Sequence record: MT764206.1 | From: Escherichia phage JEP6 | Strand: one strand, 5' to 3' | DNA length: 64,000 nucleotides | Part shown: piece by piece, positions 15,030 through 16,906 of the stretch | How the letters are laid out: each line of letters starts with the position of its first letter | Numbering within the stretch: position 1 is the stretch's first letter | Program-made: the position numbers and the translations under genes | Notes under the pieces: model-generated | The model's input: only the letters and a program-made list of their open reading frames with translations | Told to the model about the DNA's origin: nothing | Databases searched by the model: none

Positions 15030-15341
15030 TTATACCGCCATCTTTCCTTTAATTGGCGGGTGAGATACATAGTTGTTAAGAACAAAATTATGCGGCTTTG
15101 CGAATTGACTCAACCAAAATACCTGCGATTCTGTGTCCCATTCATCAAATTCATCTGGAAATTTTAATTGCAATTCGCATAAATCCATAGGTTCACGACG
15201 TAAAATTTCTTTACATTGTTCTACGTGATTCATATAGATATGAGTATTACCGCCAGAAAATATCAAATCTCCTGGAATAAGATTACACATCTTAGCTACA
15301 ATATGAACTAATGCAGCATATGATGCAATGTTGAACGGTAG
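15030..15341 (-). CDS. td: thymidylate synthase, exon 2
   Basis: Begins CTACCGTTC (LPFNIASYA) immediately after intron-terminal ATG; C-terminal TS sequence. Confidence 0.85.
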   Translation of the reverse strand, partial: LPFNIASYAALVHIVAKMCNLIPGDLIFSGGNTHIYMNHVEQCKEILRREPMDLCELQLKFPDEFDEWDTESQVFWLSQFAKPHNFVLNNYVSHPPIKGKMAV

Positions 15342-16357
15342 CATTATGTTCAGATAAGGTCGTTAATCTTACCCCGGAATTATATCCAGCTGCATGTCAC
15401 CATGCAGATCAGACTATATCTCCAACTTGTTAAAGCAAGTTGTCTATCGTTTCGAGTCACTTGACCCTACTCCCCAAAGGGATAGTCGTTAGGCATTTAT
15501 GTAGAACCAATTCCATTTATCAGATTTTACACGATAAGTAACTAATCCAGACGAAATTTTAAAATGTCTAGCTGCATCTGCTGCACAATCAAAAATAACC
15601 CCATCACATGAAATCTTTTTAATATTACTAGGCTTTTTACCTTTCATCTTTTCTGATATTTTAGATTTAGTTATGTCTGAATGCTTATGATTAAAGAATG
15701 AATTATTTTCACCTGAACGATTTCTGCATTTACTACAAGTATAAGCAGAAGTTTGTATGCGAACACCGCACTTACAAAACTTATGGGTTTCTGGATTCCA
15801 ACGCCCGTTTTTACTTCCGGGTTTACTGTAAAGAGCTTTCCGACCATCAGGTCCAAGTTTAAGCATCTTAGCTTTAACAGTTTCAGAACGTTTCTTAATA
15901 ATTTCTTCTTTTAATGGATGCGTAGAACATGTATCACCAAACGTTGCGTCAGCAATATTGTATCCATTAATTTTAGAATTAAGCTCTTTAATCCAAAAAT
16001 TTTCTCGTTCAATAATCAAATCTTTCTCATATGGAATTTCTTCCAAAATAGAACATTCAAACACATTACCATGTTTGTTAAAAGACCTCTGAAGCTTTAT
16101 AGAAGAATGGCATCCTTTTTCTAAATCTTTAAAATGCCTCTTCCATCTCTTTTCAAAATCTTTAGCACTTCCTACATATACTTTATTGTTTAAAGTATTT
16201 TTAATCTGATAAATTCCGCTTTTCATAAATACCTCTTTAAATATAGAAGTATTTATTAAAGGGCAGTCCTACAATTTAGCACGGGATTGTCTACTAGAGA
16301 GGTTCCCCGTTTAGATAGATTACAAGTATAAGTCACCTTATACTCAGGCCTCAATTA
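15342..16357 (-). mobile_element. group I self-splicing intron in td (1016 nt)
   Basis: Exon 1 ends GTTTTCTTGGGT followed by TAATTGAGGCCTGAGTATAAGGTGACTTATAC; intron ends ...ATG before exon 2; length 1016 nt matches the T4 td intron. Confidence 0.85.
15489..16226 (-). CDS. I-TevI: GIY-YIG homing endonuclease I-TevI (intron-encoded)
   Basis: 245 aa; GIYQIKN...KVYVGSA GIY-YIG motif; wholly inside td intron. Confidence 0.9.
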   Translation of the reverse strand: MKSGIYQIKNTLNNKVYVGSAKDFEKRWKRHFKDLEKGCHSSIKLQRSFNKHGNVFECSILEEIPYEKDLIIERENFWIKELNSKINGYNIADATFGDTCSTHPLKEEIIKKRSETVKAKMLKLGPDGRKALYSKPGSKNGRWNPETHKFCKCGVRIQTSAYTCSKCRNRSGENNSFFNHKHSDITKSKISEKMKGKKPSNIKKISCDGVIFDCAADAARHFKISSGLVTYRVKSDKWNWFYINA

Positions 16358-16906
16358 ACCCAAGAAAACATCTACTGATCGTTGATACCACTGCAAATCC
16401 AAATAGCCATTACGCACATTAAACTGATAGAACATATGACAAGGCGGTAATGCCATCTGCTTGAGTTCAGCTGGATTCCATGCAGAAACAATTTGACGCC
16501 TATCATTTGGCAGTTTTTTAATACGATCAATAACTTCTATAATTTGGTCTACACCACCAAAATCACGCCACTGTTTTCCATAAATTGGACCAAGTTCACC
16601 GCTATGGTATCCTAAATCTTTTGCTTGATTTTCGTAATTTTCATCCCAGACTGTTTTGCCTTGAATTAATGAATCATGCTGAATTAATCGTAAATCATTG
16701 ACATTTGTGCTTCCTGATAAAAACCATATTAACTCAGCAATGCAAGCTTTCCAGGCGAGCTTCTTAGTTGTTACCGCAGGAAAACCTTTAGTTAAATCCC
16801 AGCGTAATTTAGTACCGAACAAAGCAATTGTTCCTGTGCCTGTACGATCATCGGTTTCATAACCATTTTCAAAAATGCCTTTAATTAAATCTTGGTATTG
16901 TTTCAT
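16358..16906 (-). CDS. td: thymidylate synthase, exon 1
   Basis: 183 codons ending ...DVFLG directly followed by in-frame TAA that begins the intron. Confidence 0.85.

Follow-up and report, generated by a model that had tools for sequence, protein, structure and literature searches.

Organization of the td locus

Within the window, which is the whole 64,000-nucleotide stretch of Escherichia phage JEP6 DNA that was analysed (record MT764206.1), the thymidylate synthase gene td is split by a group I intron of the T4 type, and the intron carries the gene for the homing endonuclease I-TevI. The principal features, all on the minus strand, are as follows.

16358-16906, minus strand: td exon 1, 549 nt, codons 1-183, with the 3' end ...GTTTTCTTGGGT
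15342-16357, minus strand: td intron, 1016 nt, group I, subgroup IA-type, putatively self-splicing by its likeness to T4
15489-16226, minus strand: I-TevI gene, 738 nt encoding 245 aa (GIY-YIG nuclease, linker, zinc finger and helix-turn-helix), looped out of P6a
15030-15341, minus strand: td exon 2, 312 nt, codons 184-286 and the stop codon, with the 5' end CTACCG

The neighbouring genes are frd upstream and nrdA.2, nrdA, a mobE-like gene, nrdB, denA and rnlA downstream, in the same order as in T4. An ATG-initiated open reading frame of 183 codons starts at 16906 and, if unspliced, runs into a TAA immediately past ...GTTTTCTTGGGT (16358). This stop lies in frame within the 5' end of the intron, UAAUUGAGG, while the 3' end of the intron reads ...AACATAATG. 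Exon 1 contains the catalytic-cysteine motif LPPCH. When the exons are joined from 16358 to 15341, a protein of 286 aa results, with the junction ...RSVDVFLG/LPFNIASYAALV... (...DVFLG/LPFNIASYA...; the slash marks the junction), and this product covers the whole of Pfam PF00303 (profile positions 1-266 of 266, E = 1.6e-94). A full-length thymidylate synthase (ThyA, PF00303) requires removal of the intron, since exon 1 alone stops after 183 codons.

The spliced sequence aligns to the intron-less td of many T4-like phages over 861 of its 861 nt in a single ungapped piece. The best intron-less match is the td of ECp13 (96.3%), for which the residue-level alignment likewise has no gap at the junction. 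Because the spliced gene aligns to intron-less alleles in this ungapped manner, the exon-intron boundaries are exact and the split arrangement is not a chance one. Thus, the two exons proposed in the initial annotation hold at their coordinates and together fill the whole Pfam model, and the 1016-nt intron that it described, beginning with an in-frame TAA and ending before CTACCG, is right to the base.

Structure of the intron RNA

The secondary structure written on the window comprises P1, P2, P3, P4, P5, P6, P6a, P7, P7.1, P7.2, P8, P9, P9.1 and P9.2, together with a hairpin that precedes the endonuclease reading frame, and 83 of the 83 modelled pairs are standard pairs in the window. Its elements are located as follows; the 5' half of the core rests on the structure model, covariation and folding, and the 3' half on these and on the covariance model.

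16344-16363, minus strand: P1, exon end UUGGGU (16363-16358) with the internal guide sequence GCCUGA (16349-16344)
16266-16343, minus strand: ribozyme core, 5' half
16343-16326, minus strand: P2 hairpin, 5' half of the core
16319-16314, minus strand: P3 5' strand, 5' half of the core
16310-16281, minus strand: P4/P5, 5' half of the core
16280-16279, minus strand: P6 5' strand, 5' half of the core
16273-16266, minus strand: P6a 5' strand, 5' half of the core
15353-15507, minus strand: ribozyme core, 3' half, including P7.1, P7.2, P8, P9, P9.1 and P9.2
15507-15500, minus strand: P6a 3' strand, 3' half of the core
15494-15493, minus strand: P6 3' strand, 3' half of the core
15487-15483 with 15416-15412, minus strand: P7, 3' half of the core
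15448-15443, minus strand: P3 3' strand, 3' half of the core

The window has every one of the P3-P9 helices in paired form, including the P3/P7 pseudoknot and the subgroup IA extras P7.1 and P7.2. The U.G wobble of P1 at the 5' splice site is formed by U(-1) and G9, and the last intron nucleotide is a G (...AACAUAAUG, ending at 15342) that is invariant in the alignment of td introns. P10, which would pair the guide sequence with exon 2, is left out of the model because it amounts by eye to at most two base pairs.

Diverged and decayed relatives of this intron are the source both of compensatory changes and of above-threshold Rfam matches. The td introns of TuIa, HMGUkp2, Melville, PspYZU05, HMD-9, PD112, 235Ecol030PP and e11/2 share the insertion site and the ribozyme architecture of the window, with cores that are 83-99% identical. 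The first four have diverged to an overall identity as low as 72-90% relative to the window, the intron of e11/2 (L008) is 445 nt long with a truncated endonuclease reading frame, and those of 235Ecol030PP, PD112 and HMD-9 (319, 262 and 254 nt; L009-L011) are natural deletion derivatives that have lost the reading frame. In HMD-9, a short and different P6a hairpin, GTTC-TTTT-GAAC, replaces the loop that bears the reading frame.

Covariation was assessed over these introns together with those of the window and T4, ten td introns in all. The P1-P9.2 structure has 99.1% of cells paired; shifting the 3' partners by 1-3 columns lowers this to 32-45%. Two-sided changes occur at 9 pairs, and at 0-4 after such shifting. 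Among 500 shuffles, none matches the observed values on four of five measures, and one does so for the count of further pair types. The compensatory changes are located in P7.2, P8, P9.2 and the hairpin preceding the reading frame. The six pairs of P1 are 100% paired in the 10 introns, three of them varying on one side with pairing kept. P3, P4, P5, P6 and P7 are invariant among the ten, so that covariation is uninformative there in either direction and the support for P3-P7 is the covariance-model match. A minimum-free-energy fold of the window intron minus nt 93-846 (-83.2 kcal/mol, z = -3.1) recovers 10 of the 14 helices, namely P2, P3, P4, P6, P6a, P7.1, P7.2, P8, P9 and P9.1; P7, being pseudoknotted with P3, cannot be represented in a fold of this type.

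A covariance-model search had been put forward as a check of the intron at 15342-16357, and its outcome is divided. In E-value mode on 15300-16400 alone, the Rfam family Intron_gpI (RF00028) gives a partial match of 42.5 bits (E = 3e-09), in which the 3' half (P7, P3', P8, P7' and P9) is correctly placed and coding sequence is wrongly taken for the 5' half; this score lies under the gathering score of 50. At the gathering threshold, the search of the whole window returns no Rfam match, the td intron included. The score is low because the P6a loop holds the 738-nt reading frame, so that ~760 nt lie between the two parts of the core, and the missing gathering-level match is therefore a limitation of the model and no evidence against the intron. 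The natural td introns without a reading frame, L009, L010 and L011, span the complete model (positions 1-253 of 253) with scores of 73.8, 73.8 and 72.7 bits; their core identity to the window is 98.6%, 97.1% and 95.2%, respectively. The group I model at its gathering threshold thus overlooks introns of the td type that bear a reading frame, which is a practical blind spot of routine scans.

The interpretation as a group I intron in td is accordingly borne out by a complete P1-P9.2 structure with covariation across the ten td introns. Guanosine-dependent self-splicing of the JEP6 intron would be expected from its 99.6% identity to the td intron of T4, for which splicing is established (PMC2988022).

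The I-TevI gene and its regulation

The 245-aa GIY-YIG reading frame at 15489-16226, named as I-TevI in the initial annotation, is confirmed as such by its domains and by its identity to the T4 reference protein at 245 of 245 residues. PF01541 (GIY-YIG, N-terminal) matches residues 3-90 (E = 2.1e-18), PF22635 (I-TevI zinc finger) residues 149-179 and PF20987 (I-TevI DNA-binding) residues 192-242. Residues 1-97 match the structures PDB 1mk0 and 1ln0, the sole difference in the printed 1mk0 alignment being E75A, and the DNA-binding domain structure PDB 1i3j has the same sequence as residues 130-245.

The final codons of the I-TevI gene double as the 3' strands of P6a and P6. Such a position of the 3' end inside the core has been given as the reason for delaying translation, so that splicing is spared (PMC2988022). 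Two candidate regulatory elements lie upstream of the reading frame.

16250-16269, minus strand: putative I-TevI operator GGACTGCCCTTTAATAAATA, by identity to T4, over the T4 late-promoter-like AATAAATA (16257-16250)
16226-16255, minus strand: predicted RNA hairpin of 11 bp preceding the reading frame (5' arm 16255-16245, 3' arm 16236-16226), from folding and covariation

The operator and late-promoter segment is identical to that of the other T4-type introns in the alignment. In T4, autorepression by I-TevI involves an operator that overlaps an intron-internal late promoter, and the similarity of operator to homing site is given as 15/20 (PMC2988022); by hand count in one register, the operator matches the T4 exon homing site at 13 of 20 positions. 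Both the I-TevI Shine-Dalgarno sequence GAGG and the A of the start codon AUG are covered by the hairpin. A 61-nt segment containing it folds at -16.6 kcal/mol (z = -3.26), and the hairpin is 100% paired across the aligned introns, with one compensatory pair in the diverged ones. A translational hairpin over the I-TevI ribosome-binding site has been described for T4 (PMC2988022).

A putative I-TevI cleavage motif (CNNNG), CAACG, is found in exon 1 at -27 to -23 from the insertion site (16384-16380). The cut that the T4 enzyme makes in td without the intron lies 23/25 nt upstream of the intron site (PMC2988022), and by analogy with that identical protein JEP6 I-TevI would be predicted to cleave intron-less td as well.

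Comparison with T4 and distribution among phages

The T4 reference used for comparison is NC_000866.4, in which td occupies 143235-145112. Its intron has the same host gene, insertion site, splice-site sequences and structure as that of the window, and the two are identical at 1012 of 1016 positions (99.6%). The four differences are two silent changes in the reading frame, one A/C change and one T that is extra in T4 only. The A/C change is at intron nt 949, which is unpaired and lies between P7' and P9; the window has A and T4 has C, and the A is common to four other natural td introns. The extra T gives the T4 reference intron a length of 1017 nt and falls near nt 92 (window 16266), in the operator segment (GGACTTGCCC vs GGACTGCCC). 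It is absent from the other nine aligned td introns, and in further T4 records the match to the window spans exactly 1016 nt.

The exons diverge from T4 far more than the intron does. More specifically, exon 1 has 14 differences in 549 nt (97.4% identical) and exon 2 has 75 in 312 (76%), the differences nearest to the insertion site standing at -22 and +9. Those of exon 2 cluster in its 3' half, mostly at 15084-15201, as dense substitutions with two 3-nt indels, and this same segment is ~98% identical to phages of the T6 type. Such exon divergence next to a near-identical intron could reflect an unusually short co-conversion tract, or recent homing into a T6-like td allele, although we consider this unlikely. 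If true, it would offer a natural data point on the reach of gene conversion driven by I-TevI, adding modestly to what has been published on how T-even introns compare, and would not make a new kind of element.

A full-length td intron occurs in 196 phage records, at least 99% identical in 192 of them, and the introns of ACG-C40 and pSe_SNUABM_01 are 100% identical to that of JEP6. In about 400 phage records td occupies one place and lacks a full-length intron, so that the intron is found in only about a third of the relatives. The spliced exons reach 99% in only 2 records, most lying at 80-99%. An intron that is far better conserved than its host gene and is patchily distributed is the expected signature of a homing element.

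The window itself belongs to a Tequatrovirus. Its first 25 kb is 98.8% identical to SG1 over 96% of the query, ~97.6% to ELT1 and HY03 and ~96% to T6, and among the records of the phage collection this 25-kb query finds none that is identical to the window. The whole td region of T6, HY03 and SG1 is 98.3-99.3% identical to that of the window.

Interpretation of the td intron

The original td/I-TevI system of phage T4 is a textbook mobile group I intron. The most probable reading of the JEP6 locus (roughly 97%) is that it holds a resident T4-type td intron in a T4-like (Tequatrovirus) genome, with self-splicing and I-TevI homing under late control. Splicing, cleavage, homing and regulation are here attributed to the JEP6 element through its near-identity to that of T4. 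Under this model, td would be transcribed as a pre-mRNA with the 1016-nt group I intron inside; the intron RNA would fold into the P1-P9.2 ribozyme and excise itself through two guanosine-initiated transesterifications, joining ...UUGGGU to CUACCG... to yield the mRNA for a thymidylate synthase of 286 aa. During mixed infection with an intron-less relative, I-TevI would bind the uninterrupted td around the insertion site and cut at CAACG, 23/25 nt upstream, and repair of the resulting double-strand break would transfer to the recipient a copy of the intron with some of the adjoining exon sequence. Two devices would keep I-TevI low until late in infection: the hairpin may hide its ribosome-binding site in read-through td transcripts, and the operator on the intron-internal late promoter may allow I-TevI to repress its own transcription.

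Alternatively, the intron might be a decayed relic that splices poorly or encodes an inactive I-TevI, which would make td a pseudogene or the intron immobile. The T4 nrdB intron with its defective I-TevIII is the model for an immobile intron of this sort. The sub-threshold Rfam score of the window could be taken in this sense, and decayed versions do exist elsewhere (the truncated reading frame of e11/2 and its loss in HMD-9, PD112 and 235Ecol030PP). Yet the reading frame in JEP6 is full length and its product is identical to the active T4 I-TevI at every residue, every modelled pair is intact, and the one core change relative to T4 is at an unpaired nucleotide that also varies among natural td introns. 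The identical 1016-nt intron is moreover carried by independently isolated, viable phages. On this evidence decay is rejected as very improbable. The least credible reading, also rejected, is that there is no intron and that a free-standing homing endonuclease lies between two thymidylate synthase fragments of a split or dead enzyme, as the three separate CDSs in the public annotations of the closest relatives ('thymidylate synthase (x2)' and 'homing endonuclease') and the position of exon 2 one codon past an in-frame ATG (reading frame 15030-15344) might suggest; against it, the non-coding flanks of the endonuclease gene form a whole group I ribozyme in which compensatory changes occur, a U.G pair and a terminal G mark the 5' and 3' splice sites, the boundaries fit the uninterrupted frame of intron-less alleles base for base, and td is entered as a joined CDS in the curated records of T4 and T6.

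The resident T4-type intron is therefore a real and ordinary instance of what is already known, and nothing in it departs from the known T4 td/I-TevI element. For annotation, the three open reading frames at 15030-16906 are to be described as one spliced td gene and one intron-encoded I-TevI gene, where many related phage records list two thymidylate synthase fragments and a stray endonuclease instead. For biology, the locus adds a further example of a thoroughly studied element that is nearly unchanged in ~200 sequenced phages.

Other introns and endonuclease genes in the window

Intron content has been known since the 1980s to vary among T-even phages, and the absence of the nrdB intron from T2 and T6, which share the td intron, is a mosaic long known. 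T4 nrdB carries an intron and the nrdB of the window does not: at 10393-11571 on the minus strand it forms one reading frame of 392 aa with a full match to the ribonucleotide reductase small chain, which upholds the earlier description of the gene as uninterrupted. At the nucleotide level, nt 1-674 of the gene match one T4 nrdB exon and nt 677-1179 the other, with ~600 nt lying between these exons in T4, and the frame is continuous across the site of the T4 intron; hence the nrdB intron is precisely absent from JEP6. The gene is itself mosaic relative to T4, with 86% nucleotide identity in the exon-1 part and 97.6% in the exon-2 part, the switch falling at the T4 intron site. In SG1, unlike in the window, nrdB is split and adjoins a large endonuclease gene.

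The nrdD (sunY)/I-TevII and nrdB/I-TevIII introns of T-even phages are of the same kind as that of td, each residing in a host gene of nucleotide metabolism and bearing an endonuclease reading frame in a peripheral loop, but their host genes, insertion sites and endonucleases differ. Neither the nrdD nor the nrdB type is present in the window, as judged from the continuity of nrdB and from the conserved core blocks of the td intron, each of which occurs once in the window. These two lines were used to assess further introns; the window-wide Rfam search in E-value mode does not list even the partial Intron_gpI match (E = 3e-09 in the 1.1-kb search), and its silence on further introns is weak because it misses this known match.

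Exact core blocks are shared among different phage introns. Intron nt 43-84 (P4-P5 and flanks) are identical at 42 of 42 positions in the nrdD intron of phage F2 (L014, 1501-1542), and nt 937-969 (P7' to P9) at 33 of 33 in the nrdD intron of VEcB (L015, 1501-1533), an unrelated Justusliebigvirus. The latter block also matches at 33 of 33 positions in Campylobacter phage records.

Endonuclease content differs from T4 at other sites as well. Genes 32 (19111-20016) and 59 (20126-20779), putatively assigned by size and position relative to the SG1 and T4 annotations, are separated by 110 nt (window 20016-20126). T4 has the free-standing endonuclease gene segG between them, and the short gap indicates that segG is absent from JEP6. 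Between nrdA and nrdB, the mobE-like reading frame at 11568-12209 (minus strand) is intact, with 213 aa and the HNH and NUMOD3 domains. Identity to T4 MobE is only 60% over its N-terminal 125 aa, whereas its C-terminal 78 aa are 97% identical to T4 'nrdB.1', which is annotated separately in the T4 reference.

Finally, an exact copy of GGATAGCCTTCGGGCTATC, which we take to be the take-off hairpin sequence of the translational bypass in T4 gene 60, is found at 44281-44299 on the minus strand. Between this hairpin and the GyrB-like gene 39 lies a reading frame with a weak, below-cutoff HNH match that resembles mobA (reading frames 44415-45233 and 45211-46764, both on the minus strand). The take-off hairpin, the intervening reading frame and gene 39 together point to a T4-type split topoisomerase subunit with a ribosome-hopping element.
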